Positions 22,122-59,013 of a stretch of 64,000 nt of DNA are shown here, one piece after another. The stretch is from contig JAQVNC010000001.1 of the NCBI GenBank assembly GCA_028703305.1, positions 56,791 through 120,790 of the forward strand, given 5' to 3'. Position 1 is the stretch's first letter. The number at the start of each line of letters is the position of its first letter. Source of the DNA: Patescibacteria group bacterium. GTDB taxonomy: Bacteria; Patescibacteriota; Patescibacteriia; Patescibacteriales; GWC2-42-12. The translations under genes were made by a program, and so were the position numbers. The notes under the pieces were generated by a model that was not told where the DNA came from, made no database searches, and saw only the letters and a list, made by a program, of their open reading frames with translations.

Positions 22122-22234
22122 GTCATTGCGAGCGAACGGAGTGAGCGAAGCAATCTCACGTATGAGAAGTTTAAATTATAATTTTTACTTCGTGGGATTG
22201 CTTCGTCGCCTATTACGGCTCCTCGCAATAACAA
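22122..22234. repeat. Nested palindromic repeat L1 (gtcattgcgag…gaagcaatctcac…gtgggattgcttc…ctcgcaataacaa), intercistronic between ssb and rpsR
   Basis: Outer and inner inverted blocks shared with five other copies. Confidence 0.75.
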
Positions 22235-22245
22235 TTCATATTACT

Positions 22246-22467
22246 ATGGAAGAAACAATTAAAAAAGAAAAACGATGCCATTTTTGCGTTGAGAACTTAA
22301 AAGACATTGATTACAAAGACGCTAATTTACTGCGCCGGTTTATAAATTCTTACGGCAAGATTTTACCCAAGAAAAGAACCGGCACCTGCGCGAAACATCA
22401 GCGCAAGCTGGCGGCTTCAATTAAGCGCGCTCGAGTGATGGCTATTTTGCCGTTCACCAATAAATAA
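22246..22467 (+). CDS. rpsR: 30S ribosomal protein S18
   Basis: Translation from the ATG at 22246 ([70 protein letters not shown]); the ORF-track N-extension is repeat-derived. Confidence 0.85.
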
Positions 22468-22487
22468 TCTTCATAAGCAAATATAAT

Positions 22488-23045
22488 ATGTTAAGTTTAA
22501 GCGAAATTAAAATTGGCGCTTTGTTAAAAATTGCCGGCGAACCTTACGCGGTGATTAAAGCCGACCATCATAAAATGGGGCGCGGCGGAGCGGTTCTAAA
22601 AACCAAATTAAAAAATTTAATTAACGGCAATATTTTGGAGCAAACTTTCCAGGGTTCTGATAAAGCCGAAGAAGCCGAAACCGATACCCAGAAAGCCAAT
22701 TATTTATATAAGACTGACAGCGAGGCCAGTTTTATGAATAATGAAAGCTATGAGCAATTTAGCTTGCCTTTAGAGCAGATCGGCGATATGTTGAAATTTT
22801 TAAAAGAAGGCACGGATATAGATGTTTTATATTTTCAAGGCAATCCGGTAGCCTTAAAATTGCCGATTAAAATCGCTTTAAAAGTTGTTAGCGCCCCCCC
22901 TGGAGTTAAAGGCAACTCGGCCGGCAATGTTACCAAGGCGGTTGAGCTGGAAACCGGAACGCAATTAAATGTGCCCATGTTTATTAACGAAGGCGATATA
23001 GTAATCGTCAATACCGATACGGGTGAATATGTCAGCCGGGCGTAG
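22488..23045 (+). CDS. efp: Elongation factor P
   Basis: KIGALLKIAGEPYAVIKADHHKMGRGGAVLKTKLKNL (KOW) with OB domains II and III. Confidence 0.9.
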   Translation: MLSLSEIKIGALLKIAGEPYAVIKADHHKMGRGGAVLKTKLKNLINGNILEQTFQGSDKAEEAETDTQKANYLYKTDSEASFMNNESYEQFSLPLEQIGDMLKFLKEGTDIDVLYFQGNPVALKLPIKIALKVVSAPPGVKGNSAGNVTKAVELETGTQLNVPMFINEGDIVIVNTDTGEYVSRA

Positions 23046-23107
23046 ATAAAAAATAAATTTGCATAAATAAAAAACAGAGGCTAAATTGCCTCTGTTTTTT
23101 TTAAATT

Positions 23108-23245
23108 GTCATTGCGAGCGTTAGCGAAGCAATCTCACGAACAATTTAAATAGAATAAATTTTTATTGCAGTGATAATCTATGATTTTAATAAATAGTAT
23201 GTGAGATTGCTTCGTCGCACGAGTACGTACTCCTCGCAATGACAA
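23108..23245. repeat. Nested palindromic repeat L2, between the efp and recA 3' ends
   Basis: gtcattgcgagcgttagcgaagcaatctcac…gtgagattgcttcgtcgcacgagtacgtactcctcgcaatgacaa. Confidence 0.75.
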
Positions 23246-23252
23246 ACCGAGA

Positions 23253-24290
23253 TTAGGCTTCAACTTCCTTTGCTTCCACTTCCGAGAGAATCCTTTTTCT
23301 GATTTCTTTCATTAATTTTTTATCGGCGCGCAGAAATCTTTTGGCGTTTTCCCGGCCTACGCCCAATTTTATATCGCCGAAGCTATAGGAGTTGCCGGAT
23401 TTGCTGACCACGCCATTAGCTACACCGGTATCTAATAAATCGCCGGAGATAGAAATGCCTTCATTATACATAATATCAAACTCGCAAGCCCGAAACGGCG
23501 CTGCCACTTTATTCTTAACCACTTTGGCTTTAACGCGGTTGCCGATAATTTTGTCGCCTTGTTTAATTTGGGCTGCTCTTCTCACTTCAATTCTGACCGA
23601 AGCATAAAATTTCAAGGCTGTGCCGCCGGTAGTGGTTTCCGGGTTGCCGAAGAAGACACCGATTTTCATCCTAATCTGATTTATGAAAATAACCACGGTT
23701 TTAGTTTTGGCAATAGTGCCGGTTAGCTTTCTTAAGGCTTGGCTCATGAGCCGCGCCTGGAGCCCCATATGAGAATCTCCCATGTCGCCTTCAATTTCTT
23801 TTTGCGGCACCAGCGCGGCTACCGAGTCAACCACCACCACATCAACCGCGTTGGAACGGACCAAAGTTTCCAATATTTCCAAGGCTTGCTCGCCGGTGTC
23901 AGGCTGGCTGATCAGCATTTCTTTGACGTTAATGCCTATTTTTTCCGCGTATTCAGGATCTAAAGCATGTTCGGCGTCAATAAAAGCGGCAATACCTCCC
24001 ATTTTTTGCACCTCGCTGATAATATGCTGGGCCAAGGTGGTTTTACCGCTGGCTTCCGGGCCGAAAATTTCTATAATGCGGCCGCGCGGCACGCCGTTTA
24101 TGCCTAAAGCGATATCTAAGGATAAGCAGCCGGTCGGCACGGCGTCAACGTCTGATTTCTTAGCATCGCCGAACCTCATAATCGCGCCTTCGCCGTATTT
24201 TTCCTTAATTTGTTCTATGGCCGATTGAGCCGCCTGCATTTTTTCGTCGGATTCGCTTCTCTCTTTATTAGCCTTTATTTTAGTGTCCAT
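23253..24290 (-). CDS. recA: Recombinase RecA
   Basis: [13 protein letters not shown] Walker A, L1/L2 loops and overall RecA length. Confidence 0.95.
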
Positions 24291-24388
24291 ATTATATAAT
24301 TTAATAAATTAAAAAAGGGTATAACAACCCCCTTGTTATTTATATAATAGACTATTTTAAAATTATTGGCAATTAAACAATATAACCT

Positions 24389-25063
24389 TTATTCTTTAAC
24401 TAAAATTTGTCTAACGACCGTATTGCCGCGGCTATGCTTTTTATTGGCGGTTATGGTTATGATATTTATGCCGTTTTTAAGGCTGATAGTCTGGGAAAAA
24501 TCGCCGTTTTTATCGGTTAAAACGGTTTGGCCGTTAATTATCAAGCTGGCTTCGGCTTCAGTATGCCCGCTTACTTCCAAAGAAGTCTGGCTGGTAGTTA
24601 AGTTGGCGGCCGGGCTGTTTATAATCAGTAGTGGCGGCGAAATTATTTTATTGACGCGATAGCCTAGATATATAAAACAGACGCAGATAATTAAAAAAAT
24701 TATGACATTTTTTAAAATTTTCGGCATGGCTAAAAGGTAGCGTTTTTTTACAACTTGTTTGGAAAATATTTCTTTATTTCTTTTAGGCTCCAAGACATTA
24801 ATTTCGGCTTCAAAATCAGCGGCCAGTTTTTTATAGTCCAAACCTAAAAAAAGCGCGTATTCGCGCAAAAAGTTTTTTCCGTAGACTCCATGGGGCAGTT
24901 TTTCGTATTCGCCTTTTTCCAAAGCTATTAAGTATTTTTCGTTGATGTTTAGTTTTTTGGCGATTTGAGAAAGCTTTAGTTTTTTCTCTTGCCTTCTGCT
25001 CCTAAGTTGCTCGGAAACCGTCTCGGAGTCTAAATAAATTTTATTGGATTTAAATAAATTCAT
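24389..25063 (-). CDS. RodZ-like cytoskeleton protein (XRE-type HTH + TM + C-terminal domain)
   Basis: N-terminal LRSRRQEKKLKLSQIAKKLNINEKYLIALEKGEYEKLP (HTH), a single TM helix and an extracytoplasmic C-terminus. Confidence 0.6.
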   Translation of the reverse strand: MNLFKSNKIYLDSETVSEQLRSRRQEKKLKLSQIAKKLNINEKYLIALEKGEYEKLPHGVYGKNFLREYALFLGLDYKKLAADFEAEINVLEPKRNKEIFSKQVVKKRYLLAMPKILKNVIIFLIICVCFIYLGYRVNKIISPPLLIINSPAANLTTSQTSLEVSGHTEAEASLIINGQTVLTDKNGDFSQTISLKNGINIITITANKKHSRGNTVVRQILVKE

Positions 25064-25066
25064 TGA

Positions 25067-25501
25067 TTATTTATTAAACCAAGTTGAGGTTGCCCAATTG
25101 CCGCTAATGCCTAAAGAAGTAAAGACTAATTGGATTATCATGTAGCTGGTAAAAACAATAACCAAGCCGACAACCGCGCCGATTAAAGTTTGCTTGCCGC
25201 GTGTTACCCATTCCGGATTGCCGGCCGACAGCATCATCATTAAGCCGCCGGCCACGAAAGCCAATAAGGCTAAGGAGCCGACAATGCCGAGAATAATTTT
25301 AGTGGCATTAATAGCTATCCTGGTAAAATCATTTAATTCGCATGTGCCGGTAGTCATGCAGGCGCTTTTAGCATTTAATGCCATATCGCTGTTTTCTGTG
25401 GGGTCATTAAGCAATGGAGCCGCCTTTACCGTCAAAATACCAATAGCAAAAACATTAATCAAGAGAAAAAGTATGATTGAAAATTTTATAATGTTTTTCA
25501 T
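25067..25501 (-). CDS. TrbC/VirB2-family pilin-like protein
   Basis: Signal peptide plus two hydrophobic helices around GGLMMMLSAGNPEWVTRGKQTLIGAVVGLVIVF. Confidence 0.5.
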   Translation of the reverse strand: MKNIIKFSIILFLLINVFAIGILTVKAAPLLNDPTENSDMALNAKSACMTTGTCELNDFTRIAINATKIILGIVGSLALLAFVAGGLMMMLSAGNPEWVTRGKQTLIGAVVGLVIVFTSYMIIQLVFTSLGISGNWATSTWFNK

Positions 25502-25514
25502 TTGATTTATTTTA

Positions 25515-26921
25515 TTACTGGTTTAAATTAACCGTCTGCTGGACTTTTTGCGCCGCTAAATTAATGACGCTTTCCATTTTATCTTGGGCTAAAATCGCGC
25601 TATCAATCATTTCGGCGAATATTTTTTCCATAGCGTTTGAATCCGCGCCATGGTACCAGCTTTTAGCCGTTAAAACCTGGCTGGCGAAAACGCCAATGTC
25701 TAGATCATCAATTTGTTCGTTAACCAAAGAACGCAGAGCCGTCGGCCTTTTGGATTTTGCTAAATAAGTTTTAGCTTGATCGGCTTTAGTTTCAAATTGG
25801 ATAAAATCCCAAGCCTCATTGGCATATTTGCTTTTGTTGGAAACGGTTTCCAGCCAATAATTGGCGAAATTAATCGGCGTGTTGCCTTCAATCTGCGGCA
25901 TTTTCGTTATGCCGAAATTAAGCTTGGGCGCTTGCGCTTTGATAACCGGTAAATGATAGGCGTAGCCGAACATAACGCCTAATTTCCCTTGAGCGAACAT
26001 ATTTGAAGAAATTTCCAGATCTTTATTCCAGGCATAAACTTCTTTGGCCGGGTTGGCGAAATCAGAATAAAAGCGCAAGGCTTCCAGGCCGGGATTATAT
26101 TTTTGATCTTGGAAAGCCGCCGGGATCCTATTAAATAAAACTTGGCCGTTGTCGTCCATCATGACCGAGCCGTTTTGCATCATTAAAGCCGACAAAATAT
26201 CGCTATAACGTTCAATGTTGGTAGTGCCGCCAAGAGCCGCGCCTGATTGGATAATTTCGCCTTTGTCGTTTTGCTTGGTCATTTTTTTTACGTCTTGTTG
26301 GAATTCAGCATTCCAGTAAGCCGGCGGCTGGGCGATGCCGGCGTTGTTAAACAGATCTTTGTTATAATACATGGCTAGAGTGTCAACCGATAAGGGCAGG
26401 CCGTAGACTTTATCCTCATATTGCTTGGTTTTTTCATTAAAAGTCGGGATAATCACGTCTTGATAAACCGCATCAACGAAATTATTTTTTATGTCATTCA
26501 AGCTCAGGCTTTTAGCAGTTCTTAATTCAGGGATGACTTCTTTTTTAATGGTGCCTTTGGTTATCGGATAAGCCATGGTAATAGTCGCGGGCATAGGCGT
26601 TATTTTGCTCGCGTATTTTTTTGTCCAAGTATTATGGATGGAAAAAATATCCGGTCCGCGATCCTCGGCCAAGGCGTTTATCAGTTCGCTTTCATATTCA
26701 CTATATCGCAATTTACGGTAATTTATGGTAATAAAAGGGTGCAGCGCTTTATAGGCGGCTAAAATTTCTTCAAAAGCGTCTTCGCCGTCATAAACTCGCC
26801 AATAAGTAAGCGTAATCGGCTTCATGGCGTCTTGGGTTTTTTTGTCAACCAGCTTGCAGCCGAAGCCGGAGGTCAGAATGATAATAAAGAGTAGTGATAA
26901 GATTATTATGCGGTTTTTCAT
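25515..26921 (-). CDS. ABC transporter extracellular solute-binding protein (family 1, sugar type), a lipoprotein
   Basis: Lipobox …LTSGFGC and the SBP_bac_1 fold pattern. Confidence 0.75.
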   Translation of the reverse strand: MKNRIIILSLLFIIILTSGFGCKLVDKKTQDAMKPITLTYWRVYDGEDAFEEILAAYKALHPFITINYRKLRYSEYESELINALAEDRGPDIFSIHNTWTKKYASKITPMPATITMAYPITKGTIKKEVIPELRTAKSLSLNDIKNNFVDAVYQDVIIPTFNEKTKQYEDKVYGLPLSVDTLAMYYNKDLFNNAGIAQPPAYWNAEFQQDVKKMTKQNDKGEIIQSGAALGGTTNIERYSDILSALMMQNGSVMMDDNGQVLFNRIPAAFQDQKYNPGLEALRFYSDFANPAKEVYAWNKDLEISSNMFAQGKLGVMFGYAYHLPVIKAQAPKLNFGITKMPQIEGNTPINFANYWLETVSNKSKYANEAWDFIQFETKADQAKTYLAKSKRPTALRSLVNEQIDDLDIGVFASQVLTAKSWYHGADSNAMEKIFAEMIDSAILAQDKMESVINLAAQKVQQTVNLNQ

Positions 26922-27083
26922 AGATAATTAATTTTTGAATTTTTAATTTTGCCCCCATCCGGGGATAAATAATTTTTAAATAATGACTAAATTTTTAATG
27001 TTTAAAAATTGGAAATTAAAAATTGTTAGGTTATTACCTGATAATATTATAACATAAATTAAAAGGTAATAAAAATCGGTGTC

Positions 27084-28601
27084 TTATTCTATCCTCGGCC
27101 GATACTGTAGGGCTTCGGCGATATGAGGCGTTAAAATAGCTTCTTCGCCGGCCAAGTCAGCGATAGTGCGAGCCAGTTTAAGGATGCGAAAATAGCCTCT
27201 GGCCGATAGATGCATTTGATCCACGGCTTGATGCAGTAAATTAGTTGAGATATTGTCAACGCGGCAGAAACGTTTAATGGCTTCAGGCGACATTTCCGAG
27301 TTGGTTATAAAATTAGTGCCGATGAAACGTTCGGTTTGCCTGCTTCTGGCGCTTTCCACCCGTTTTTTTATTTCTTCTGATTTTTCACTATTCGCGGTCG
27401 CGGCCAGTTTATCAAATTTTATTCTCGGCACTTCAATATGCAGGTCAATCCGATCTAAAATCGGGCCGGAGATTTTTTTCTTGTAATTCATAATTTGCGT
27501 TGAAGAACAAACGCAATTTTTTTCCCGATCGCCCAAGTAGCCGCAAGGGCAGGGGTTGGAGGCGGCCACTAAAATGAATTTGGCTGGAAAGCTTAAATTG
27601 CTGGCGGCTCGGCTGATATGAATTACGCCGTCCTCTAAAGGCTGTCTTAAGTTTTCCAGAACCTGGCGTGTGAATTCAGCGAATTCATCCAAAAATAAAA
27701 CACCGCGATGGGCCAAAGAAATTTCTCCGGGCTTTGGCCAGGTGCCGCCGCCGACTAAAGACACGCCAGAGGCTGTATGATGGGGCGACCTAAAGGGACG
27801 CGAAGTCATTAATGGCGTCTCGGCCGGCAATTCTCCGGCCACGCTGTAAATTTTGGTTATTTCCAAAGCTTCTTTTAAAGATAAATTAGGTAAAATTGAC
27901 GGCATAGTGCGGGCAATCAAAGTTTTACCTGATCCTGGCGGGCCGCTCATTAAAACATTATGGGCGCCGGCGGCCGCGATTTCCATGGCTCGCTTAACAT
28001 GCTCTTGGCCTTTAATATAGGCCATGTCAAATTCAACAGTGGCGTTGGTGAAATTAAATTCCGTGTAAGGCGCGCCGGCTATGATTTGGCGGTTTTCCAG
28101 GTGAGCGACCAGTTCAACTAAATTATTAACCGGTATGACTTCAAGGTCATTAACCAGTTTAGCTTCGCAAGCATTGGCCGCCGGCACGAAGATGGCGGTT
28201 AAGCCTTTATTTTTAGCTTTGATGGCAATAGGCAGAACGCCGTTAACCGGCCTAAGTTCGCCGTTTAGAGCCAGTTCGCCGACGAATAAAAAGCGGGAAA
28301 AATCTTCGCAGTTTATTTTTTTAGTCGCGGCTAAAATACTGATGGCGATCGGCAGGTCGTAGCTTGGGCCTTGCTTTCTTAAATCAGCCGGCGCCAGATT
28401 AACCGTGACTTTTCTTTTGGGAAAATAAAGTCCGGAATTTTTTACCGCGCTTCTGACCCGTTCCCTTGATTCCGAAACCGCGGCATCAGGCAGGCCGACA
28501 ATAATAAAAGCGCCTAGAGGGTTATTGGAGATATCAGCTTCAACCTGAACCAGCTCGGCATCCAGCCCGACTACGGCGGCGGAGATAATTTTTGAAGACA
28601 T
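27084..28601 (-). CDS. comM: YifB/ComM-family Mg-chelatase-like AAA+ ATPase
   Basis: N-terminal Lon-like SSKIISAAVVGLDAELVQVEADIS, Walker A GPPGSGKT and a C-terminal Mg-chelatase region. Confidence 0.85.
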   Translation of the reverse strand: MSSKIISAAVVGLDAELVQVEADISNNPLGAFIIVGLPDAAVSESRERVRSAVKNSGLYFPKRKVTVNLAPADLRKQGPSYDLPIAISILAATKKINCEDFSRFLFVGELALNGELRPVNGVLPIAIKAKNKGLTAIFVPAANACEAKLVNDLEVIPVNNLVELVAHLENRQIIAGAPYTEFNFTNATVEFDMAYIKGQEHVKRAMEIAAAGAHNVLMSGPPGSGKTLIARTMPSILPNLSLKEALEITKIYSVAGELPAETPLMTSRPFRSPHHTASGVSLVGGGTWPKPGEISLAHRGVLFLDEFAEFTRQVLENLRQPLEDGVIHISRAASNLSFPAKFILVAASNPCPCGYLGDREKNCVCSSTQIMNYKKKISGPILDRIDLHIEVPRIKFDKLAATANSEKSEEIKKRVESARSRQTERFIGTNFITNSEMSPEAIKRFCRVDNISTNLLHQAVDQMHLSARGYFRILKLARTIADLAGEEAILTPHIAEALQYRPRIE

Positions 28602-28631
28602 AAATTATAATGTCATGGCGATAATAAAAGA

Positions 28632-31286: not shown

Positions 31287-31489
31287 AATATTTTAAAGCC
31301 CTCTTTTAAAAGAGGGATGAGGTTTGTTGCTAGATTTATTATACAATATTTTGTTTAAATAAAAAAGCCGGCAGATGTTTTTGTCTCTGCCGGGTGAACA
31401 TTGTTGAAGAGCGAAGTCGCCGCGCATGGCTTAGATTTGCCTTTTAAGGGCAGGCCGGCCGCGGCCAAGGGTTTTAGGATCACCTCACT

Positions 31490-32684: not shown

Positions 32685-34097
32685 TTATTTTTTTAATTTT
32701 TTGTAAAGTTTTAAATATTCATGAGCCGGCTTATTCCAGGAAAAATCTTGCTTTAGGCCGTTAAGCTGAAGCCGGCGCCAGAATTTTTTATTTTTATAAA
32801 AAACAGTTAAAGCCTTATCTATGGTTTTATATAATTCTTGGCCGGAATATTTTTTAAAAGCAAAACCAACTTTATGGTTGACCGTATCGGCCAGTCCGCC
32901 GGTTTTTCTGACTAGCGGTACGCTGCCATAGCGCATGGCGATTATCTGGCCCAGACCGCAGGGTTCAAAACGGGACGGCATTAAGAAAATATCGGCGCCG
33001 GCGTAAATTTGATGCGCCAGTTTTTCGTCAAATTTAATTAGCGCGCTGAATTGGCGCGGAAATTTTTTAGATAAGCTTAAAAGCTGCTGCTCGTATTCTT
33101 TTTGGCCGGTGCCCAAAAAGACAAACTGGCAGTTAAGCTGGCTAAAGTTTTCCGTAATTAAATTCAGGCCCTTTTGCCAAACTAAACGAGAAATTAAACC
33201 GACCAAAGCCATATTTTTATCTAGGGGCAAGCCTAATTGCTTCTGTAAAGCCAGTTTATTGGCGGTTTTTTTCTCTAAATTTTTAAACGAATATTTTTGG
33301 CTGATTAAATTATCAGTAGCTGGGTTAAAAAAGCCGGTATCAATGCCGTTTAGTATGCCGTAAAGATCCTTTTTTCTTTTTTTAAGGATTTTTTCAAGAT
33401 TAGCGCCATATTCTTTGGTTAAAATTTCTTTAGCATAAGTCGGGCTGACCGTATTAATTAAATCGGCGTTTAAGATACCATCGGCCAGGTAATTATTGTT
33501 TTTATTTATGCCTTGGTTAGCCAAATTATGGATGGTTAGGAGAGTTTTGGTTTTAGCGAAGAAATTATCTTGTTGATTTAATGTTTTAATAAAACCGGCG
33601 ACCGGAGCCGTATGCCAATCATTTAAATGCATGACGTCAGGCTTGAAATTTAATTTTTTTGCCACGGCCAGGGCGGCGCGGCTAAAAAAGGCAAATCTTT
33701 TTAAATCATCTGGCTGTCTGGTATATTTTCCGTTTAATATTAATCGCGGGCCGGAGTAGATTTCGCTGGAGCTAAAAAATTTATGCTCAATTAAATAAAC
33801 GGGAATTTTTGTTCCCGGCAGATTAGTTTTATAGACATCAATAATTTTGTCTTTATCGCCCGTTGTCACGGCCAGGCGGCTGATAATTTTTTCAGCCGGA
33901 TATTTTCTTTTATCAATCAAGCCGTAAAAGGGCAGGCAGATTCTAATATCTATCCCTAGCCCAGCCAGAGCTTTAGGCAAGCTGCCAGCTACGTCGCCCA
34001 AGCCGCCGACTTTAGCTAAAGGCGCGACCTCGGCCGAGAGAAATAAAACTTTAATTTTAGGTTTGTTTGGCATAATTTTTATCTTTCTTTTATCCAT
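32685..34097 (-). CDS. glgA: Glycogen/starch synthase (ADP-glucose type, GT5)
   Basis: KVGGLGDVAGSLPKAL N-terminal motif and a GT-B C-terminal domain. Confidence 0.85.
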   Translation of the reverse strand: MDKRKIKIMPNKPKIKVLFLSAEVAPLAKVGGLGDVAGSLPKALAGLGIDIRICLPFYGLIDKRKYPAEKIISRLAVTTGDKDKIIDVYKTNLPGTKIPVYLIEHKFFSSSEIYSGPRLILNGKYTRQPDDLKRFAFFSRAALAVAKKLNFKPDVMHLNDWHTAPVAGFIKTLNQQDNFFAKTKTLLTIHNLANQGINKNNNYLADGILNADLINTVSPTYAKEILTKEYGANLEKILKKRKKDLYGILNGIDTGFFNPATDNLISQKYSFKNLEKKTANKLALQKQLGLPLDKNMALVGLISRLVWQKGLNLITENFSQLNCQFVFLGTGQKEYEQQLLSLSKKFPRQFSALIKFDEKLAHQIYAGADIFLMPSRFEPCGLGQIIAMRYGSVPLVRKTGGLADTVNHKVGFAFKKYSGQELYKTIDKALTVFYKNKKFWRRLQLNGLKQDFSWNKPAHEYLKLYKKLKK

Positions 34098-37743: not shown

Positions 37744-37845
37744 GTCATTGCGAGGAGCCACGTACTCGTGGCGACGCGGCAATCTCTGGTTGAGCTCCGA
37801 GTATGTGAGATTGCTTCGCTTCCTTTGGTCGCTCGCAATGACAAT
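37744..37845. repeat. Nested palindromic repeat L3
   Basis: gtcattgcgaggagccacgtactcgtggcgacgcggcaatctctg…gtgagattgcttcgcttcctttggtcgctcgcaatgacaa; near-identical to L6. Confidence 0.75.
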
Positions 37846-37854
37846 CGTAAAAAG

Positions 37855-39324
37855 TTATTCGTTGTTTTTTAACGCTTTTCTATATAAAGCGACGTATTTT
37901 TTGGCCGGTATTTCCCAGCTATTGGATTCTTCCATCGCTCGCACAATCAATGCACGCCAAATATTTTTATATTGGCGGGTTTCCAAAGCTCTGATAATGG
38001 CGGCAAAAAGCGAATATTTGTCAAAACCGGTAAAGTTAAAGCCGGTGCCGCGGTTGGTTCGGGGATTATAATTAGTAACAGTATCATAAAGGCCGCCGAC
38101 TTTTCTAACCACCGGGATGCAGCCATAGCGCATGGCGATTAATTGGTTGATGCCGCAAGGCTCATGGTGCGATGGCAGAAGAAAAATATCAGCGCCGGCG
38201 TAAATTAAAGTTTCCATGGCTTGGTTTTCCTTAAATGACAGCCAGATGATTTTTTTTGGGTATTTTTTATTATATTTTTTAAGTTCGGCGATATAGCTTT
38301 TATCGCCATCGCCCATAATTATAATTTGTATATCCAATTTAGCCAATGGCTCCATTATTTCCAAGACTAAATCCATGCCTTTTTGGAAAGTAACCCTTGA
38401 AGTTAAAGCGATAATCGGCATTTCCCGGTCAACCGGCAGGCCGATTTTTTTCTGCAGATATTCTTTATTTAATTTTTTGCGGTGGATTTTTTTGTAATTA
38501 TAGTTTTTAAATAAGCCTTTGTCATTATCCGGATTGTAAGTTTTGTAGTCAATGCCGTTTATAATGCCGTAAAGCTTGTCTTGGCGGTTACCGAGGATCC
38601 GATGCAAGTCTTGGCCGAATTTTTTTGTTAAAATTTCTTCGCGGTATTGCTCGCTGACCGTATTTATAATATCGGCCGAGAGAATGGCCCGTTTGGCGAA
38701 ATTAATATTTTCCATTCTAGGGTCGTCTTGATGCGGCAGGCGGCTGCGGCCGTAGTCTTTATCTTTATTGGGTATTTCCCACCAGCTGTGGCCGAGCTGA
38801 AACACCAAATTATGGATAGTAAAAATTGTTTTGGCTTTTTTCAGGGTGTCTGAATACTGGAAATCAGTTTTTAAATAATAGGGAATTAAACCGGTATGCC
38901 AGTCATGGCAATGCACGATGTCAGCCTCAAATTTTAAAAAAGAAATGAGTTTTAACGCCGCCACGTCAAAGGCTAAAAAGCGCGCGTTTTCATGCGATGA
39001 GCCGTAAATGGTTTTTCTGGCGGAGAAATATTTTTTATTTTCAATAAAATAGACCGGCAGATTTTTCATCAAGTAGCCTCGCCAGAAATTAACTTGGATT
39101 TTATCAACCGAATTTAAATAGACGCTTGCATTTTCTTTGATTAATTTTAAATTATGCTGTTTAACATCAATGGTTTGGCCGTAAAGCGGAGTAATAATAA
39201 TGATTTCATGGCCCAATCTTTTAAGGGCCTTAGGCAGGCTTTTAGCCACGTCAGCCAGCCCGCCGGTTTTGGAAAACGGGGCGACTTCGGCCGCGATGGA
39301 AACTATTTTTAAGGGCTTAGACAT
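37855..39324 (-). CDS. Second glycogen synthase-like glycosyltransferase (GT5/GT4)
   Basis: KTGGLADVAKSLPKAL; start taken at MSKPLKIV (39324). Confidence 0.75.
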   Translation of the reverse strand: MSKPLKIVSIAAEVAPFSKTGGLADVAKSLPKALKRLGHEIIIITPLYGQTIDVKQHNLKLIKENASVYLNSVDKIQVNFWRGYLMKNLPVYFIENKKYFSARKTIYGSSHENARFLAFDVAALKLISFLKFEADIVHCHDWHTGLIPYYLKTDFQYSDTLKKAKTIFTIHNLVFQLGHSWWEIPNKDKDYGRSRLPHQDDPRMENINFAKRAILSADIINTVSEQYREEILTKKFGQDLHRILGNRQDKLYGIINGIDYKTYNPDNDKGLFKNYNYKKIHRKKLNKEYLQKKIGLPVDREMPIIALTSRVTFQKGMDLVLEIMEPLAKLDIQIIIMGDGDKSYIAELKKYNKKYPKKIIWLSFKENQAMETLIYAGADIFLLPSHHEPCGINQLIAMRYGCIPVVRKVGGLYDTVTNYNPRTNRGTGFNFTGFDKYSLFAAIIRALETRQYKNIWRALIVRAMEESNSWEIPAKKYVALYRKALKNNE

Positions 39325-39334
39325 AGAAATAAAA

Positions 39335-39811
39335 TTAAATACTATTACCGGCGCAAATCGCGATCGCCAGCGCGTCGGCCGCGTCATCAGGTCTGGGCAG
39401 TTCTTTAAGATTTAAAATAATTTTGACCATTCTTTGCACCTGGTCTTTTCTGGCGTGGCCATAAGTGGAAACGGCTTGTTTTACTTGATACGGCGTGAAT
39501 TCCACGCTGTTAATTTTATTTAGCTTGGCCGTTAAGACAACCACGCCCCTGGCTTGGCCGACGATCAGCGCGGTTTTTACGTTGTTGCCGAAAAATAATT
39601 CTTCAATGGCAATTAAATCCGGCTTATATTTTTTAATTAGTTTGGTGAGCTCTGAATTTATTATTTCCAGCCGATCGGCCAGGTTAAGCTTGGCCGAAGT
39701 TTTTATTGAGCCATAGCCAAGGCAGGTTAATTTATTGTTATCAATTTTAACAATGCCAAAGCCGGTATCGGCGATGCCCGGGTCAATGCCCAGAATCGTT
39801 TTTATAGCCAT
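39335..39811 (-). CDS. ruvC: Holliday junction resolvase RuvC
   Basis: ILGIDPGIADTGFGIV and catalytic D/E positions. Confidence 0.85.
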   Translation of the reverse strand: MAIKTILGIDPGIADTGFGIVKIDNNKLTCLGYGSIKTSAKLNLADRLEIINSELTKLIKKYKPDLIAIEELFFGNNVKTALIVGQARGVVVLTAKLNKINSVEFTPYQVKQAVSTYGHARKDQVQRMVKIILNLKELPRPDDAADALAIAICAGNSI

Positions 39812-48988: not shown

Positions 48989-49004
48989 TTATATTTGCTA
49001 TACT
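48977..49004 (+). promoter_or_regulatory. Consensus sigma70 promoter (TTGACA-16-TATACT) overlapping the tsaD stop
   Basis: ttgaca aaataattatatttgc tatact. Confidence 0.6.
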
Positions 49005-49011
49005 GATTTTA

Positions 49012-49296: not shown

Positions 49297-49329
49297 AATT
49301 GAACATTATAAATTAAGGAGGGAAAAATT

Positions 49330-49503: not shown

Positions 49504-49597
49504 TAGCCAAAACGCGGGGAACGAAATTATCTTTCGTTGCCCGCTCTTTTTTAAAATTAAACTTTACAAATTAACCAAATAAATATAGAATAAAACC

Positions 49598-50626: not shown

Positions 50627-50629
50627 ATT

Positions 50630-50700
50630 GTTATTGCGAAAAATTTCTGGATTCCCGCCTGCGCGGGAATGACAAATTGGAGATTGGTCGCAATGACATT
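50630..50700 (+). repeat. Short hairpin repeat S4 (tttctggattcccgcctgcgcgggaatgacaa) nested inside a minimal gttattgcgaa…gtcgcaatgaca frame; it supplies ATGs upstream of gdh
   Basis: Shares the consensus of the other S copies; the flanks resemble the termini of the L family. Confidence 0.65.
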
Positions 50701-51946: not shown

Positions 51947-51955
51947 GATAATATT

Positions 51956-52064
51956 GTCATTGCGAGCTTCTGAAAGAAGCGAAGCAATCTCACGAATGGC
52001 AAGTTTGGGTAAAAAATTGTTGTCCGTGAGATTGTTTCGTCGCTGAAGCTCCTCGCAATGACAG
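51956..52064. repeat. Nested palindromic repeat L4
   Basis: gtcattgcgagcttctgaaagaagcgaagcaatctcac…gtgagattgtttcgtcgctgaagctcctcgcaatgaca. Confidence 0.75.
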
Positions 52065-52070
52065 AATAAT

Positions 52071-52367
52071 ATGGATATCCAAGAACTTTTAGCTTCGGCT
52101 AAAACGCAAACCTTTGACCGGTTCGCGCAAAAGCTAAATACTTTAGTCAGAGAAAATTACCGCTTTAGCAATTTGGACGAAGCTAACAGGAAAATTGTTT
52201 TAGATATAATTAAGAAGCATTTAGGCGATATCCATCGCGGCCAGGGCATCTCTTCGGTGGTTTTAGAGCGGGAAAGTTATAATTTGTACCAAAATCGAGA
52301 GAAGCTGAAATTGACCGAAGAAGATTTGAAAGACATTAAGGAGATATTGAGATTATTTAAAAAATAG
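52071..52367 (+). CDS. Hypothetical protein (98 aa)
   Basis: An ORF with plausible start context; no recognisable family. Confidence 0.4.
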   Translation: MDIQELLASAKTQTFDRFAQKLNTLVRENYRFSNLDEANRKIVLDIIKKHLGDIHRGQGISSVVLERESYNLYQNREKLKLTEEDLKDIKEILRLFKK

Positions 52368-52423
52368 AAGACAAATAAAAAAGCCGAGGCGATAACAGCC
52401 TCGGCTTTTTTATATGAAAAATT

Positions 52424-53761: not shown

Positions 53762-53835
53762 ATTTATCGGTTATTTTATAAAAAAGGCGATAGATTTTAC
53801 CGCCTTTTTTATTCTAACAAAGTATATTATTTTTG

Positions 53836-54972
53836 TTAAGCTTTCTTAAATGACAGCATAATTCCGCCCAAGCCCCAGAGCATGGCCAGCAGCGCCACAA
53901 TCCAGCCGATAAACGGCAAAGCGAAAATCAAATAGGCTACTATAATGCCAACTACCATGGCTAAAATCAAGGAATCTTTTTGCTTGGCCCAATAATTATT
54001 TAAGAGGCTTCGGCCGATTAAAATGCCGACCAAAATTTTACTTAGGTAAATCGCGATTAGCCAGAGGCCCAGCGTAATAAAAGCCAGAGGCAAGCCGATA
54101 ATAGTAATAAGTAAAACTATAAATATTAAAGGCGTTAAGAATAAAGCTAAAACTCCCCAGCCCAAAGCCGGGCCGACTTTAGCCAGCATTAAGTCCGTGG
54201 TTTTAATTATCTGTTCGCGCCAGAAACTGATTATAACCAAGCCGATGACTAAAGCGGAAAAAATGGAAATTAATTTTCCCCACCACCAGCCCAAATTAGC
54301 CGCGTTTGATTTTTTATTAACCACGGCCGGGAAATTATGGATAGTTTCACCTTTTATTACCGCGCCGGCATCAACGGCCGCGTCTTTACCAGATTTATAG
54401 GTTACATTGCCGTTAATTTTGGCCGTGTTGGCGATTACTAATGGTTTATCATAGTTGTTCTGCGAGCCAAAATTAAGATTAAGATTTTTTCCGATTTGTC
54501 CGGCCACGTTAACTTTGCCGGCGCTGCCGTAGAAATCGCGGCCGATATTGCCCCTTAGTTCAAAAATATTGCCTAACACCAATAAGTCCCAGCCGATGGT
54601 TGAGCTGGCCGAGGTAACGACGGTTGCGCCAACGGTTATGCCGTTGCGCGCCACTTGGCCGTTAAAATTAACCGTATTGCCAACCACGCGCAGATTGCCG
54701 CCGATTTTGCCGTTAATGCTAATGGATTGTCCGGCGCAAATCACATCGCCGGCCACGTCGCCATTGATGTTGACGGATTGTCCGGCGCAAATCACATCGC
54801 CGGTAACTTTGCCTTCAATGGTTAAATTAGAACCGACCGCGTAAAGGTTGCCCTCAATTACTTCCTCTTTAGGCACATAAATAGAGTCGCCTTTTTTAAC
54901 GCTGTAAGCTGAGGCCGCTAAAGGAAGGAGCAGGACGGCCAAACAGGCCACCAGAAGAGTTGTTTTTTTCAT
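53836..54972 (-). CDS. Membrane-anchored bactofilin-like repeat protein
   Basis: Signal/TM at the N-terminus, GDVICAGQSVNINGDVAGDVICAGQSISINGKIGGNL bactofilin-like repeats, and a multi-TM C-terminus; start taken at MKKTTLL (54972). Confidence 0.55.
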   Translation of the reverse strand: MKKTTLLVACLAVLLLPLAASAYSVKKGDSIYVPKEEVIEGNLYAVGSNLTIEGKVTGDVICAGQSVNINGDVAGDVICAGQSISINGKIGGNLRVVGNTVNFNGQVARNGITVGATVVTSASSTIGWDLLVLGNIFELRGNIGRDFYGSAGKVNVAGQIGKNLNLNFGSQNNYDKPLVIANTAKINGNVTYKSGKDAAVDAGAVIKGETIHNFPAVVNKKSNAANLGWWWGKLISIFSALVIGLVIISFWREQIIKTTDLMLAKVGPALGWGVLALFLTPLIFIVLLITIIGLPLAFITLGLWLIAIYLSKILVGILIGRSLLNNYWAKQKDSLILAMVVGIIVAYLIFALPFIGWIVALLAMLWGLGGIMLSFKKA

Positions 54973-55019
54973 ATAATTGTGTTTTAATAATATATACTCT
55001 AATAATAACATTTAAGGTA

Positions 55020-56624
55020 ATGGCTATCAAGCAAAAGCAAAACAGAAAAAACGCTATCGGCGAATTATTAAACAGTAAGATTAAGTCGCGCGTTGAGTTA
55101 ATGGCGATTAAAAGAAAACTGGCTAAAAAATACGGCGAGAAAATTTTGTCGCACTCGGAAATTTTAAAAGAATATAGAAATAAGTTGAGTACAACAACGA
55201 TTAAGCGGCAAGCCGAGCTGGAAAAAGTTTTGCGCAAGCGTTCGGTCAGGACCATGTCCGGCATCGCGCCGGTAGCGGTTTTAACCAAGACCTACCCCTG
55301 CCCGGGTAAATGCGCTTATTGCCCGACTGAAAAAGATGTGCCGCAAAGTTATTTGTCCAATGAGCCGGCGGTCATGCGCGCTATCCGCTGTGGCTATGAT
55401 CCGTATAAGCAGGTTCAACTGCGCTTGCGCGCCCTAGAAGCTAATGGGCATGAACCGACCAAAATTGAATTGATTGTCATCGGCGGAACCTGGTCGGTTT
55501 TACCGGAGAATTATAAATATTGGTATATTATGGAGTGTTTTAGGGCGGCAAATGAACATGGCGTTAAAAGCCAAAAACACAGTTCAAAATTAAAAATTGC
55601 TAAATTAAAAAATAATTTAAATTTAGAGCAGAAAAAAAACGAAAGCGCTAAATATAAAATTATCGGCATAACTTTGGAAACCAGACCGGATTATATTAAT
55701 AAAAAAGAGCTGTTAGAGATGCGCGAGCTGGGCTGTACCAGGGTTGAATTAGGCGTGCAGGCGATTGACGATAAAATTTTAAAATTAAATAAGCGCGGCC
55801 ATGGCGTGGCAGAGGTGGCGCAGGCTACCAAGTTACTAAAAAATTATGGTTTTAAAGTAACTTATCATATCATGCCGGGGCTGCCCGGGGCGACGGCCAA
55901 AAAAGATTTGGCCATGTTTAAAAAATTATTTACAAACGAACGTTTTCAGCCGGATCAGCTTAAATTTTATCCGACCGTGGTAACGCGCGGCAGTTTATTA
56001 TATAAATGGTGGCGCGCCGGGAAATATAAGCCGTATTCGGATAAGGTTCTCAAAGACTTGATTATGAAATGCAAAAAAGTCGTGCCGCCATACGTGCGCA
56101 TTATCCGCCTTATCCGTGATATTCCCGGCGAATCAATTATGGCCGGAAATTTAATAACCAATCTAAGGCAGGTCATGAAAGATCAAGGCGTGGTTTGCAG
56201 GTGCATAAGATGCCGGGAAGCCAAAGAGCAAAAGTTTAAAGTTGAAAGTTTAAAGTTGAAAGTTATTAGATATAAAGCTTCCGGCGGGGTAGAATATTTT
56301 TTAAGTTATGAATCTAAAGATGGAAAAGTTTTATATGGGTTTTGCAGGTTAAGGCTTGTTAATGCAAAATCCCCCTTGCCCCCTTTGCTAAAGGGGGCTG
56401 GATTGATTCGTGAATTACATGTTTATGGCGAGTTGGTTTCGGTGGGTAAATTAAAAAAAGTCCAGCATGCGGGACTGGGAAAAATGTTAATGCAAGAAGC
56501 GGAAAAAATAACGCGCGAGCAAGGTTATAAAAAAATAGCCGTGATTGCCGGCGTGGGCGTGCGCGGCTATTATCGGAAGTTAGGATATCGCCTGGAAGAT
56601 AGTTATATGGTTAATAGCTGGTAA
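55020..56624 (+). CDS. Elp3-like radical-SAM plus GNAT acetyltransferase (tRNA wobble-uridine modification homologue)
   Basis: CPGKCAYCP radical-SAM cluster motif and a C-terminal GNAT region (GLGKMLMQEAE); start at the ATG at 55020. Confidence 0.75.
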   Translation: MAIKQKQNRKNAIGELLNSKIKSRVELMAIKRKLAKKYGEKILSHSEILKEYRNKLSTTTIKRQAELEKVLRKRSVRTMSGIAPVAVLTKTYPCPGKCAYCPTEKDVPQSYLSNEPAVMRAIRCGYDPYKQVQLRLRALEANGHEPTKIELIVIGGTWSVLPENYKYWYIMECFRAANEHGVKSQKHSSKLKIAKLKNNLNLEQKKNESAKYKIIGITLETRPDYINKKELLEMRELGCTRVELGVQAIDDKILKLNKRGHGVAEVAQATKLLKNYGFKVTYHIMPGLPGATAKKDLAMFKKLFTNERFQPDQLKFYPTVVTRGSLLYKWWRAGKYKPYSDKVLKDLIMKCKKVVPPYVRIIRLIRDIPGESIMAGNLITNLRQVMKDQGVVCRCIRCREAKEQKFKVESLKLKVIRYKASGGVEYFLSYESKDGKVLYGFCRLRLVNAKSPLPPLLKGAGLIRELHVYGELVSVGKLKKVQHAGLGKMLMQEAEKITREQGYKKIAVIAGVGVRGYYRKLGYRLEDSYMVNSW

Positions 56625-57480
56625 TTTCTTTTAGCAGTTGGTTAACATAATCCAGAGATGAATCATTTAAAATAGTAATATCAAATTTTTTCTTAAACTG
56701 TTTTAAGTTTTCTTTTTCGTCATGATTATAAAAGCCGATTTTAATTAAATGGTCGTAATTAAAGCCGGTTACCATATCAACATCGCCCAGCCGGTCGCCC
56801 AACAGGATAACATTTTTTCTTTTTTTCATTTTCCGCCAGATGACCGGAAAATTTTTTATTTTCGCTTCATCTTTATTGGCGCTATGGATAATAGGCTTTT
56901 TAAAGCCAATCATCCGCCCTTTTTTATCCCAGATTAAAGTATTGGAAATTATATAAATATTGTTTGATTGGATTTTGCTTTGGCGCAGGCTGGCCTTGAC
57001 CGACTCATCGCCCAGACCGCTGGCCGACATGATAACTAAAGGTATTTTATTAATTCTAAGAAGTTTAAAAAAATCAACGCCGCCGTCTCTTAAGCGGATA
57101 TTATCAGACTTAACTGCCCGGGCGATATCTTTTTTGGTCAGGTCGGATTCAATTAGGAGTTTGAAATGTTTAGACCACCATTCATTCATGGCGCGTTTTT
57201 TTTTGGTCGGGGAAACTTTATAGCTGTCTTCTATGGGGTGGTATTTGTAGTAAAGGGCGTAGGATTTTTCCGGGTAATCAGGGGTCAGATATTTTTCATC
57301 GCGCAATACTGAAATTAGGGAATTTACTTTTTTGCCATTAACATAGGCTTTAGTTAAAGTATTGTCAAAATCAGCCAGAACATGAATTTTGCGCGCGCCA
57401 GTGCGCGCTAAAGCGGCAATAGTTTTTTTCAGCTTTTTAGGGCTGGTAATTATTATATTTTTAGGCGTTATTTTAGACAT
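56611..57480 (-). CDS. HAD-superfamily hydrolase, pyrimidine-5'-nucleotidase (UMPH-1)-like
   Basis: HVLADFDNTLT motif I, and a downstream Lys and DD motif. Confidence 0.55.
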   Translation of the reverse strand: MSKITPKNIIITSPKKLKKTIAALARTGARKIHVLADFDNTLTKAYVNGKKVNSLISVLRDEKYLTPDYPEKSYALYYKYHPIEDSYKVSPTKKKRAMNEWWSKHFKLLIESDLTKKDIARAVKSDNIRLRDGGVDFFKLLRINKIPLVIMSASGLGDESVKASLRQSKIQSNNIYIISNTLIWDKKGRMIGFKKPIIHSANKDEAKIKNFPVIWRKMKKRKNVILLGDRLGDVDMVTGFNYDHLIKIGFYNHDEKENLKQFKKKFDITILNDSSLDYVNQLLKEITSY

Positions 57481-57620
57481 ATTTTTATGGTAGCAAGTTT
57501 ATTTATTTTTGTCATGCCAGCCGTAGCCTGCCCCCTTTCTTTTGACAAAAAGAGTGGAAAAAACTACTATTAAGATAAAGATTTTGTATTATCGTAGACA
57601 GTATTTATTAAATTATGAGT

Positions 57621-57662
57621 GTGTGAGATTGCTTCGTCGCTGGAGCTCCTCGCAATGACAAT
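57621..57662. repeat. Right half of nested palindromic repeat L5 (a possible degenerate left arm lies near 57513)
   Basis: gtgtgagattgcttcgtcgctggagctcctcgcaatgacaa. Confidence 0.6.
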
Positions 57663-57671
57663 TTTAAATAT

Positions 57672-58919
57672 ATGTTAAATTATAAAATTTTAAATGAGCA
57701 GGATGCTGAAGTTATGGCCGCGGTTAAACGGGAAATGGCCAGGCAGGCCGAGGAAATGGAATTAATCGCTTCGGAAAATTATACTTCTAAAGCCGTGCTG
57801 GAAGCCATGGCGACCGTCTTGACCAATAAATATTCCGAGGGCACGCCAGGCCACCGTTATTACGGCGGCAATAAATTCGTGGATGAAGTGGAAACTATCG
57901 CGGTAGAGCGGGCAAAAAAATTATTCTCGGCTGAGCATGTTAATGTCCAGCCTCTTTCCGGTTCGCCGGCTAACGCGGCCGTGTATATGGCATTTATTAA
58001 GCCGGGTGATAAAGTTTTAGGCTTGCGCTTAGACCATGGCGGGCATTTATCGCATGGTCATCCGGTTAATTTTTCCGGCATGCTGTATAATTTTACCCAA
58101 TATGAAGTTGACGCCGAAACCGGTAAAATTGATATGGAGAAAGTTAGGGAAGTCGCTTTGCGGGAAAAGCCGAAAATGATCGTGGCCGGCTATAGCGCTT
58201 ATTCACGGGAAATAGAATGGCAAAAATTTAAAGATATCGCGGACGAAGTAGGCGCGTTCACTTTCGCGGATATAGCTCATACGGCAGGACTGATCGCGGC
58301 CGGCGAGATGAATAATCCGGTGTTGATTTTTGACGTGGTTTCCACGACCACTCATAAAACTTTACGCGGCCCGCGCGGCGCCATGATAATGTGCAAAGAG
58401 CAGTTTGCCAAGCAGGTTGACCGGGCGGTTTTTCCCGGCATGCAGGGCGGGCCGCATGACCATATCACCGCGGCTAAAGCCGTGGCTTTCGGCGAAGCTT
58501 TGCGCCCGGAATTTAAAGAGTATGCCAAGCAAGTAACCTTGAACGCCAAACTTATGGCCGAGGAATTTATAAGGCTGGGCTATCGGGTAATTTCTAACGG
58601 CACGGACAACCATTTAATGGTGGTTGATATGACCTCTAAAGGTTTATCGGGCAAAGAAGCTGAAATTATTTTAGATAAATGCGGTATTTCGGTTTCCCGC
58701 TCCACAATTCCGAACGACCCTAATCCGCCCATGAACCCATCGGGCGTGCGCTTTGGCACTCCGGCTATTACCACCCGCGGCATGAAAGAGGAAGAAATTA
58801 AAAAAATCGTCGGCTGGATTAATGCCGCGATTGAACAAAAAGACGAGGCGGAAATGCTTGATAATATTAAGAAGCAAGTTAAAGAAATGTGCTTGGAATT
58901 TCCGATACCTTCAATATGA
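57672..58919 (+). CDS. glyA: Serine hydroxymethyltransferase
   Basis: PLP site …STTTHKTLRGPRGAMI… and overall SHMT conservation. Confidence 0.95.
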   Translation: MLNYKILNEQDAEVMAAVKREMARQAEEMELIASENYTSKAVLEAMATVLTNKYSEGTPGHRYYGGNKFVDEVETIAVERAKKLFSAEHVNVQPLSGSPANAAVYMAFIKPGDKVLGLRLDHGGHLSHGHPVNFSGMLYNFTQYEVDAETGKIDMEKVREVALREKPKMIVAGYSAYSREIEWQKFKDIADEVGAFTFADIAHTAGLIAAGEMNNPVLIFDVVSTTTHKTLRGPRGAMIMCKEQFAKQVDRAVFPGMQGGPHDHITAAKAVAFGEALRPEFKEYAKQVTLNAKLMAEEFIRLGYRVISNGTDNHLMVVDMTSKGLSGKEAEIILDKCGISVSRSTIPNDPNPPMNPSGVRFGTPAITTRGMKEEEIKKIVGWINAAIEQKDEAEMLDNIKKQVKEMCLEFPIPSI

Positions 58920-58920
58920 T

Positions 58921-59013
58921 GTCATTGCGAGGAGCGCTAGCGACGAAGCAATCTCTGGTTAATATCCGAGTACGTGAGATTGCTTCGCTCCTTTCAGTCG
59001 CTCGCAATGACAC
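58921..59013. repeat. Nested palindromic repeat L6, abutting the glyA stop
   Basis: gtcattgcgaggagcgctagcgacgaagcaatctctg…gtgagattgcttcgctcctttcagtcgctcgcaatgaca. Confidence 0.75.

Follow-up and report, generated by a model that had tools for sequence, protein, structure and literature searches.

Tail-to-tail hairpin doublets, probably of the NTS/SRM class, in intergenic spacers of a Patescibacterium

The Neisseria Transformation Sequence (NTS; CGTCATTCCCGCGMAVGCGGGAATCYRG), with the long-known dRS3 repeat inside it, is the target of SsnA, a 94-aa single-domain GIY-YIG protein (cd10448) that binds the NTS only as single-stranded DNA (ssDNA), does not bind its RNA form, and cleaves a few nucleotides upstream (Chenal et al. 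2025, PMC11893778). Cutting is governed by the three nucleotides 5′ of the palindrome (GTC) and binding by the 3′ C, and the loop can be removed or extended (PMC11893778). Ssn homologues occur in many phyla, flanked by their own Ssn-related motifs (SRMs); among genomes with more than 200 SRMs, 81% have an Ssn homologue and 19% have none (PMC11893778). Here we analyse a 64,000-nt stretch of DNA from a Patescibacteria group bacterium (contig JAQVNC010000001.1, positions 56,791 to 120,790; hereafter the window), in which six copies of a composite palindromic repeat had been noticed. These elements are probably tail-to-tail doublets (in one case a half copy) of an NTS/SRM-class hairpin, and in this Falkowbacteria-like Patescibacterium they have probably been copied as units into AT-rich spacers between genes, with no duplication of the target site.

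Elements of this general kind are already known, from the NTS/SRM-Ssn system, from the NIMEs of Neisseria and from the REPIN-like architectures built of repetitive extragenic palindromic (REP) sequences. What is new is the variant of the hairpin, the insertion of polar doublets as units, documented by clean empty sites, and the presence of such elements in Patescibacteria, whose members are believed to rely on taking up DNA. The first description of the Ssn/SRM system dates from 2025. NIMEs (dRS3-RS-dRS3) were stated in 2007 to be Neisseria-specific (PMC1797815).

Anatomy of the hairpin arm and its doublets

The original prediction read each copy as an outer 11-bp and an inner 13-bp inverted pair, nested and separated by variable spacers. 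The repeats are real and their motifs lie far above chance, with 10 copies of the inner 13-mer GAAGCAATCTCAC in the window at up to two mismatches (0.91 expected) and 13 of the outer 11-mer GTCATTGCGAG at up to one mismatch (0.48 expected). The paired sequences exist, but they are really the two halves of each arm hairpin, the 11-mer being its 5′ half and the 13-mer its 3′ half. The ‘variable spacer’ between them is the distal stem-loop of that same arm, and the whole unit also occurs singly in other genomes. Five of the six copies are complete (91–136 bp), with ends within 1–3 nt of those first given; the one at 57.6 kb is a half copy.

Listing all GTCAT sites in the window gives the arm unit Y-GTC / ATTGC / GAG / variable stem-loop / GAA / GCAAT / C, which we call U-type: a 5-bp basal stem, a conserved purine internal loop (GAG/GAA) and then a variable second stem-loop. 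Its form in the window, found in 11 arms, is (T)GTC-ATTGC-GAG-[7-21 nt]-GAA-GCAAT-C-TCAC. Each complete composite sets two such arms tail to tail about an AT-rich centre of 15–62 nt, with a fixed polarity of arm A (GAG-CGAC..GGAGC-GAA), centre and inverted arm B (GAG-GAGC..GCGAC-GAA). The window also holds short single hairpins, the S-repeats, with the frame GTC-ATTCCCGC-NNNN-GCGGGAAT-C-CAG and a perfect 8-bp stem. Further stem variants are ATTGCGGC in the window and ATGCT and ATTCCGGG in relatives. Composites and S-repeats have their right terminus in common, as first noticed, and are related families, with dRS3 carried by the single S-repeats only. Y-GTC followed by ATT opens all 11 window arms and all single hairpins, one arm being degenerate with GTT (the outer end of arm B in composite 1, GTTATT), and a cytosine stands directly after the palindrome (GCAAT-C or GGGAAT-C) in every copy. 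The constants across hairpin variants are GTC, the ATT/AAT stem base and the 3′ C.

Outside the window, the unit GTCATTGCGAG-N5-25-GAAGCAATC occurs in at least 120 IMG/VR contigs, where it is mostly single, with tail-to-tail pairs frequent and tandems occasional. In 96% of units the base ahead of GTC is a pyrimidine, and the closing C is followed by C or T. Nearly all variable inserts are small stem-loops that differ in sequence, such as CGAAGC, GAGCGCAGCGAC or GCTGACTTCGTCAGCC; the self-complementarity of 264 distinct inserts exceeds that of their shuffled versions (Wilcoxon p = 4e-19), and arms show internal compensatory variation in this distal stem-loop.

Folded as RNA, each complete composite forms a long hairpin on either strand (-43 to -55 kcal/mol, z -4 to -9; for composite 1, -47 kcal/mol, z -6.9). 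Folds of composites 4 and 6 with DNA parameters (-26.5 and -31 kcal/mol) prefer a hairpin of arm against arm, and the S-type hairpin folds as DNA at -9 kcal/mol (z -4.8). A K-turn reading of the GAG/GAA loop was dropped after the strand geometry, judged by hand, proved unsuitable. Rfam gave no family at gathering scores for the repeats and, at E <= 10, only chance miRNA- or sRNA-like matches far under the thresholds; a literature search with the translated repeats returned nothing relevant.

Filled and empty sites in close relatives

Close relatives were chosen by EF-P, the best being 80–85% identical and having the same gene order as the window. The ssb-rpsR spacer measures 4–33 nt in seven of them, compared with 131 nt in the window, and the window spacer minus composite 1 is 21 nt, the length of an empty spacer. 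Between efp and recA, eight relatives (L122-L127, L130, L132) have only the conserved terminator, whereas the window has the terminator plus composite 2. A reciprocal site, the 13 nt at window positions 25502-25514, is empty in the window and in L122, L123 and L129 and is occupied by a U-type composite of 125–133 nt in L125, L128 and L132. The original suggestion that the copies are REP-like, non-coding and mobile thus holds on an evolutionary scale, and the empty sites that it proposed to look for in related genomes exist. Its further description of them as actively proliferating is too strong: window copies are pairwise only 74–86% alike (composites 3 and 6 are 86% identical over 73 nt), so that a recent burst has not taken place.

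The junctions of 10 of the 11 composites from window and relatives have no duplication, and that of the remaining one has 1 nt. When the composites are put in one orientation, arm A always falls at the same end and arm B at the opposite end; composites 1 and 4 have centres similar to those in the L128 and L132 composites (CGAATGRC..GTTTAAATTATA), with CGAATGRC..GTTT in common. Because the polarity is common and centres are alike at different loci and in different genomes, the whole doublet is the copied unit; the filled and empty site pairs, free of target duplications, mean that hairpin doublets insert as units. In relative L178, three spacers in a row contain hairpins, among them an S-type pair that sits inside a U-type doublet. 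Adjacent hairpins stand tail to tail rather than head to head in 51 versus 9 cases in viral contigs and 162 versus 25 in metagenome contigs, tail to tail being by far the commonest pairing in all data sets. The doublets behave like REPINs or isolated NIME units, unlike MITEs (miniature inverted-repeat transposable elements) with target-site duplications.

The likeness to the described systems can be set out on both sides. With NTS/SRM the elements share an oriented hairpin with GTC directly 5′ and C directly 3′ of the palindrome, an A/T-rich stem base (ATT...AAT), a dispensable loop, many intergenic copies and, for the U-type in metagenomes, a position immediately 3′ of Ssn genes, frequently with a further copy on the 5′ side; the S-repeats of the window are themselves NTS copies, with 0–2 mismatches to the consensus. 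They differ in that U arms, with their short basal stem, internal loop and second stem-loop, fall outside the SRM search pattern, in being here mainly polar tail-to-tail doublets with no Ssn gene in the window, and in their host, a Patescibacterium, from a group outside the RefSeq representative set of the published survey; that study did not include insertion polymorphism, which is shown here (PMC11893778). Like NIMEs, in which GC-rich palindromes bracket AT-richer spacers of 19–214 bp, they occur as isolated units and, in L178, as nested or clustered arrays between genes, and the dRS3 palindrome is the NTS core; unlike NIMEs, their bracketing palindromes are U-type, not the 20-bp dRS3 ATTCCC-N8-GGGAAT, and most units stand alone instead of forming long arrays (PMC1797815).

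With the REP, REPIN and BIME sequences served by REP-associated tyrosine transposases (RAYTs; IS200/IS605-like Y1 enzymes) they have in common short imperfect palindromes, a conserved oriented head, an inverted doublet as replicating unit, the lack of target-site duplications, hairpins recognised as ssDNA and an associated gene flanked by its own repeats. Here, however, the associated enzyme is a GIY-YIG nuclease of about 95 aa, not an HUH/Y1 enzyme with a covalent intermediate, the head sequence differs, and the motif is found across many phyla, with no restriction to one species or genus. MITEs, among them the Correia elements (CREE) of Neisseria, are likewise small, non-coding, intergenic, strain-polymorphic and bounded by inverted ends, but the present elements have no target-site duplication and no parent insertion sequence (IS), and their ‘ends’ are independent hairpin units.

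The ssb-rpsR spacer is also an insertion hot spot for other sequences. That of L123 contains an unrelated insert of ~130 nt (9621-9769), those of L161, L137 and L159 have repeats of the type ATTACTACGAATATTTGTAGTATTCG, and that of L178 has a variant doublet with an ATGCT/AGCAT stem. Several of the loci compared (L122, L124, L129 and many others) are recorded as ‘uncultured Gammaproteobacteria bacterium’ and are Patescibacteria by EF-P identity and gene order, so these record titles look like placeholders.

Ssn genes, a possible mechanism and alternatives

The published NTS consensus finds three window sites, with 0, 1 and 2 mismatches, and none in shuffled sequence; the published SRM pattern finds four sites against 0.02 expected; and the copy at 20846-20880 has 33 nt identical to the copy at the N. 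gonorrhoeae ssnA locus. On these matches the S-repeats are identified as canonical NTS elements in a Patescibacterium.

For the U-type hairpin, we scanned metagenomes for a U-type head lying 5–35 nt past the coding sequence for the conserved C-terminal NPxWxDL, which gave at least 120 contigs, and searched these with an Ssn-family profile built from 151 family representatives. Among the matches listed, 116 of 120 contigs have a full Ssn-family open reading frame (ORF), with E-values down to 1e-49, and in 103 of the 112 Ssn ORFs with E <= 1e-20 the U hairpin starts 0–16 nt past the stop codon, the same geometry as ssnA and the NTS in Neisseria. A U head in the same orientation also lies within 250 nt upstream of 63 of these ORFs, although an upstream head was no criterion of the search. 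The U-linked Ssn proteins resemble Neisseria SsnA as closely as they resemble one another, with a median identity to SsnA of 53% and a maximum of 66%. From this physical linkage we regard the U-type as a form of SRM not described before, with Ssn partners of its own. Since it is linked to Ssn genes and yet missed by the published pattern, pattern-based surveys undercount the system. U-type hairpins are distributed over plasmids of Cyanobacteria, Alpha- and Gammaproteobacteria, many viral contigs and Patescibacteria, so that the variant and the canonical NTS are both present in the last group.

The linkage has its bounds. The clade-specific, CTCAC-tailed composite is in none of the listed Ssn-linked metagenome contigs, and a search of viral contigs for the pattern of hairpin plus Ssn gave no matches. 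Seven Ssn loci from plasmid-collection records contain no U-type hairpin: those of Neisseria, Azospirillum, Aeromonas and Photobacterium have NTS-type hairpins and that of Sinorhizobium has the ATCCTCGGG type, and in those of R. tumorigenes and Novosphingobium we found no hairpin of this frame by eye or by a stem scan. The best 120 matches of the Ssn profile search came from Nitrospirota, Bacteroidota, Cyanobacteria, Chloroflexi and other named groups, with no Patescibacteria among them. Six-frame regular expressions and a local HMM search for GIY-YIG genes gave no Ssn gene in the window or the relatives, the sole finds being a frameshifted Ssn (L089) and a small GIY-YIG of another type (L138). 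The latter, at 15100-15351 of this Patescibacteria relative, is an ORF of another subfamily (C-terminal KTGQGRERRKYL) without an ATG start, wedged between two sequences that resemble tRNA 5′ halves.

How the doublets might be copied can be sketched from these observations. Repeats of the NTS/SRM class, as oriented palindromes, would be bound as ssDNA and nicked upstream by small single-domain GIY-YIG Ssn nucleases (cd10448). Given the conserved GTC and C, the activity within the clade and the 81% of SRM-rich genomes with an Ssn homologue, a cognate Ssn is presumably encoded in this genome outside the window and would recognise U-type arms. Nicks 5′ of each arm, on opposite strands of the doublet, could then allow a composite to be copied or lost, while a single-stranded doublet folded arm against arm would hide the individual recognition hairpins. 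More speculatively, each strand of a tail-to-tail doublet has one forward hairpin at its 5′ side, so that the two nicks would bracket the element on opposite strands. For each of the eight single hairpins of this frame in Table 1 the forward strand is the - strand, regardless of how the adjoining gene is oriented; GC skew in the window is mostly positive, with slight dips at ~12-20 kb and 28-34 kb. Single hairpins favour the C-rich strand elsewhere too (71 versus 23 in viral contigs, 16 versus 5 in relatives), a bias that fits avoidance of an exposed lagging-strand template and is confounded with gene direction.

One extension of this mechanism is, in our view, unlikely. Ssn-hairpin doublets might be non-autonomous mobile elements copied via the ~95-aa GIY-YIG ssDNA nuclease, in a partnership like that of REPINs and RAYTs with another nuclease fold and no covalent intermediate, active in streamlined Patescibacteria, in which the arm-against-arm fold would protect the element from its own nuclease. 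The locus makes testable whether a GIY-YIG ssDNA nuclease can drive REP-like repeat expansion.

Several observations weigh against assigning the doublets to the Ssn system. Neither the window nor 1.09 Mb of syntenic sequence from 80 relatives has an Ssn-family gene, the listed Ssn-linked metagenome contigs include no close relative of the source organism, and none of the window arms, when scanned, fits the published SRM pattern. As ssDNA, single U arms fold weakly under nearest-neighbour parameters (-0.8 to -7.6 kcal/mol), no better than shuffles. To our knowledge, GIY-YIG nucleases simply nick their substrate and are not known to carry out strand transfer, and for this reason an Ssn role in repeat copying is conjecture. 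It is put forward only as a hypothesis by the authors of the Ssn study, who also report that Neisseria meningitidis (Nm) SsnA becomes inactive once the palindrome sequence is altered (PMC11893778); an enzyme dedicated to the U-type would accordingly be needed.

The lack of an Ssn gene in the window and the clade sequence is also what one would expect of orphan repeats in a lineage without Ssn, that is, inert remnants, or sequences whose only routes of spread and shuffling are homologous recombination or the taking up of foreign DNA, as once proposed for the dRS3/NIME arrays of Neisseria. The 19% of SRM-rich genomes without a homologue (PMC11893778) and the divergence of the copies are in keeping with this, as are the arm inserts of the orthologous L128 and L132 composites, which differ while the centres are alike and so suggest conversion between copies. 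Against it, composites occupy different loci in different close relatives, the nested arrays in three consecutive spacers of L178 demand a precise, duplication-free insertion process, and the conservation of GTC and the 3′ C in nearly all copies argues for continued protein recognition; we consider orphan repeats unlikely. REPINs that a RAYT from another part of the genome copies in trans would explain the same architecture of two inverted short palindromes about a less conserved spacer, the long hairpin, the intergenic placement without target-site duplications and the strand bias of single units. No Y1_Tnp is among the window ORFs, however, and the gene adjoining the U-type hairpin, among the matches listed, is an Ssn GIY-YIG in 116 of 120 contigs and not a RAYT. 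The conserved flanks are GTC...C, as in NTS/SRM, rather than the GTAG-type head of REP sequences, and a literature search gave no paper tying RAYTs or REPINs to Patescibacteria. This makes REPINs in the strict sense quite improbable, and an IS200/IS605 or IS1595 enzyme (TnpA/TnpB), which had been proposed as the cognate partner, is probably wrong: the frame of GTC, palindrome and C is that of the Ssn NTS/SRM, and at least 116 metagenome contigs have the arm motif next to an Ssn gene (PMC11893778 for the frame).

A purely RNA-level role, in which the hairpins are kept as terminators, attenuators or mRNA stabilisers and not as DNA sites, has in its favour that all copies adjoin gene ends, one of them inside the rpsF-ssb-rpsR operon, and that the hairpins are highly stable when folded as RNA (-43 to -55 kcal/mol). 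REPs of E. coli do stabilise upstream mRNA. Yet no U-tract follows the hairpins, composites lie in both polarities relative to genes, and single window hairpins are all on the - strand regardless of neighbouring gene direction. Close relatives have the sites empty and retain the conserved efp terminator without the element, Rfam has no match, and near-identical sequence across phyla is unexpected for a purely structural RNA signal. SsnA, moreover, does not bind the NTS as RNA (PMC11893778). We regard this account as very improbable, while a secondary effect of the hairpins on transcripts may exist. Least probable of all is the classical MITE, a deletion derivative of a DDE-type IS moved by cut and paste through terminal inverted repeats (TIRs), although this was the label first attached to the copies. 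The arms are indeed mutually inverted, the elements are 91–136 bp long with an AT-rich middle, and they are polymorphic between relatives. But target-site duplication is lacking in 10 of 11 composites, the supposed TIR stands alone or in tandem far oftener than as an inverted pair around a fixed core, and the arms show internal compensatory variation. A single arm sequence is, besides, common to Cyanobacteria, Proteobacteria, Patescibacteria and viral contigs, and neither a transposase nor an IS or other parent element is found in the window or the fetched loci. Scans of all substantial window ORFs gave no transposase, HUH, Y1_Tnp, TnpB or GIY-YIG gene, in agreement with the original prediction as to the transposase, and viral contigs L058 and L061 have no transposase-like ORF between their two inverted hairpins.

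Coordinates, gene context and other observations

Pfam scans of the gene context of all copies confirm that they adjoin gene ends and that one lies within the rpsF-ssb-rpsR operon, as first described. With copies numbered along the window (Table 1), the gene order reads rpsF-ssb-(1)-rpsR-efp-(2)-recA, GH57-(3)-glycogen synthase, glutamate dehydrogenase (GDH)-(4) and pyrimidine nucleotidase-(5)-glyA-(6)-folD, copies 5 and 6 being on either side of glyA. The polarity of composite 3 was taken from the alignment of composites. To the left of copy 5, at 57511, stands GTCATGCCAGCC, with no matching arm.

Table 1. Positions of the composite elements and single hairpins in the window
Feature	Position	Strand	Structure	Context
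Composite 1	22122..22232	+	arm A 22122-22159, AT-rich centre, arm B 22192-22232 on reverse strand	between ssb stop (22114) and rpsR start (22246), inside rpsF-ssb-rpsR operon
Composite 2	23108..23243	+	arm A 23108-23138, 62-nt AT-rich centre, arm B 23201-23243 on reverse strand	efp-recA; 3′ of conserved efp terminator (23070-23103), ahead of recA stop (23253)
Composite 3	37744..37842	-	opposite polarity; arm B 37744-37789 on + strand, arm A 37805-37842 on - strand	between GH57 gene start (37732) and glycogen synthase stop (37855)
Composite 4	51956..52062	+	arm A 51956-51993, arm B 52026-52062 on reverse strand	between glutamate dehydrogenase stop (51946) and ORF 52071-52367
Copy 5	57623..57659	-	solo arm B (half copy); intact right arm	divergent spacer between pyrimidine 5′-nucleotidase gene (start 57480) and glyA (start 57672)
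Composite 6	58921..59011	-	opposite polarity; arm B 58921-58958 on + strand, arm A 58974-59011 on - strand	starts 1 nt past stop (58919) of glyA (SHMT gene), ends 10 nt ahead of folD start (59022)
Hairpin, frame GTC/ATT...AAT/C	11195-11237	-	ATTCCCGC stem, extended loop	tRNA-Asp/ychF spacer
Hairpin, frame GTC/ATT...AAT/C	11270-11295	-	ATTGCGGC stem	tRNA-Asp/ychF spacer
NTS hairpin	19604..19631	-	2 mismatches to consensus	directly 3′ of methyltransferase gene 19639-20814 (- strand)
Canonical NTS hairpin	20849..20876	-	CGTCATTCCCGCGAAAGCGGGAATCCAG; 0 mismatches to published consensus	
NTS hairpin	50647..50674	-	1 mismatch to consensus	
Short related hairpin	50687-50697	-		adjoins NTS hairpin 50647-50674
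Degenerate hairpin, frame GTC/ATT...AAT/C	59980..60004	-	GTCATTGCGGACTTGACCCGGGATC	between folD and recQ
Degenerate NTS-like sequence	62333..62360	-	fits SRM pattern	inside SAM-methyltransferase ORF 62075-62785

The NTS hairpin with one mismatch and its short neighbour share the spacer between an aminoacyl-tRNA synthetase gene and the glutamate dehydrogenase gene. The Pfam alignment of the methyltransferase ORF has no gap at the degenerate NTS-like sequence, which may be a chance match or an old in-frame copy.

The repeats also have a practical consequence for annotation, in that they give rise to spurious ORFs and misplaced start codons. The longest rpsR ORF (22126-22467; 113 aa, or 108 aa as called in a Logan contig) crosses composite 1, the real S18 start being 22246, and the mechanical GDH start at 50669 falls within an NTS hairpin.

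Other repeats and genes of the window deserve brief mention. A low-GC (29–33%) restriction-modification island at 12884-18840, with no SRM hairpin inside, encodes a C5 cytosine methylase with a MerR helix-turn-helix domain, an Eco47II-like endonuclease, a GNAT acetyltransferase, an unknown ORF and a TaqI/Eco57I-like N6 methylase. Between these genes lies another palindromic repeat, CGCGCGCGTTGAGCAAAACCGC...GCGGTTTTGCTCAACGT, with full copies at 15729-15811 and 18909-18991 that are 94% identical and a partial one at 14941-14979. Two adjacent copies of the palindrome TAAGTCCACAAATTTGTGGACTTA (3113-3194), operator-like in look, separate the genes for thioredoxin and thioredoxin reductase. Finally, the glycogen/starch synthase paralogues at 32685-34097 and 37855-39387 share a 129-nt stretch (32881-33009 and 38078-38206) with 74% DNA identity.

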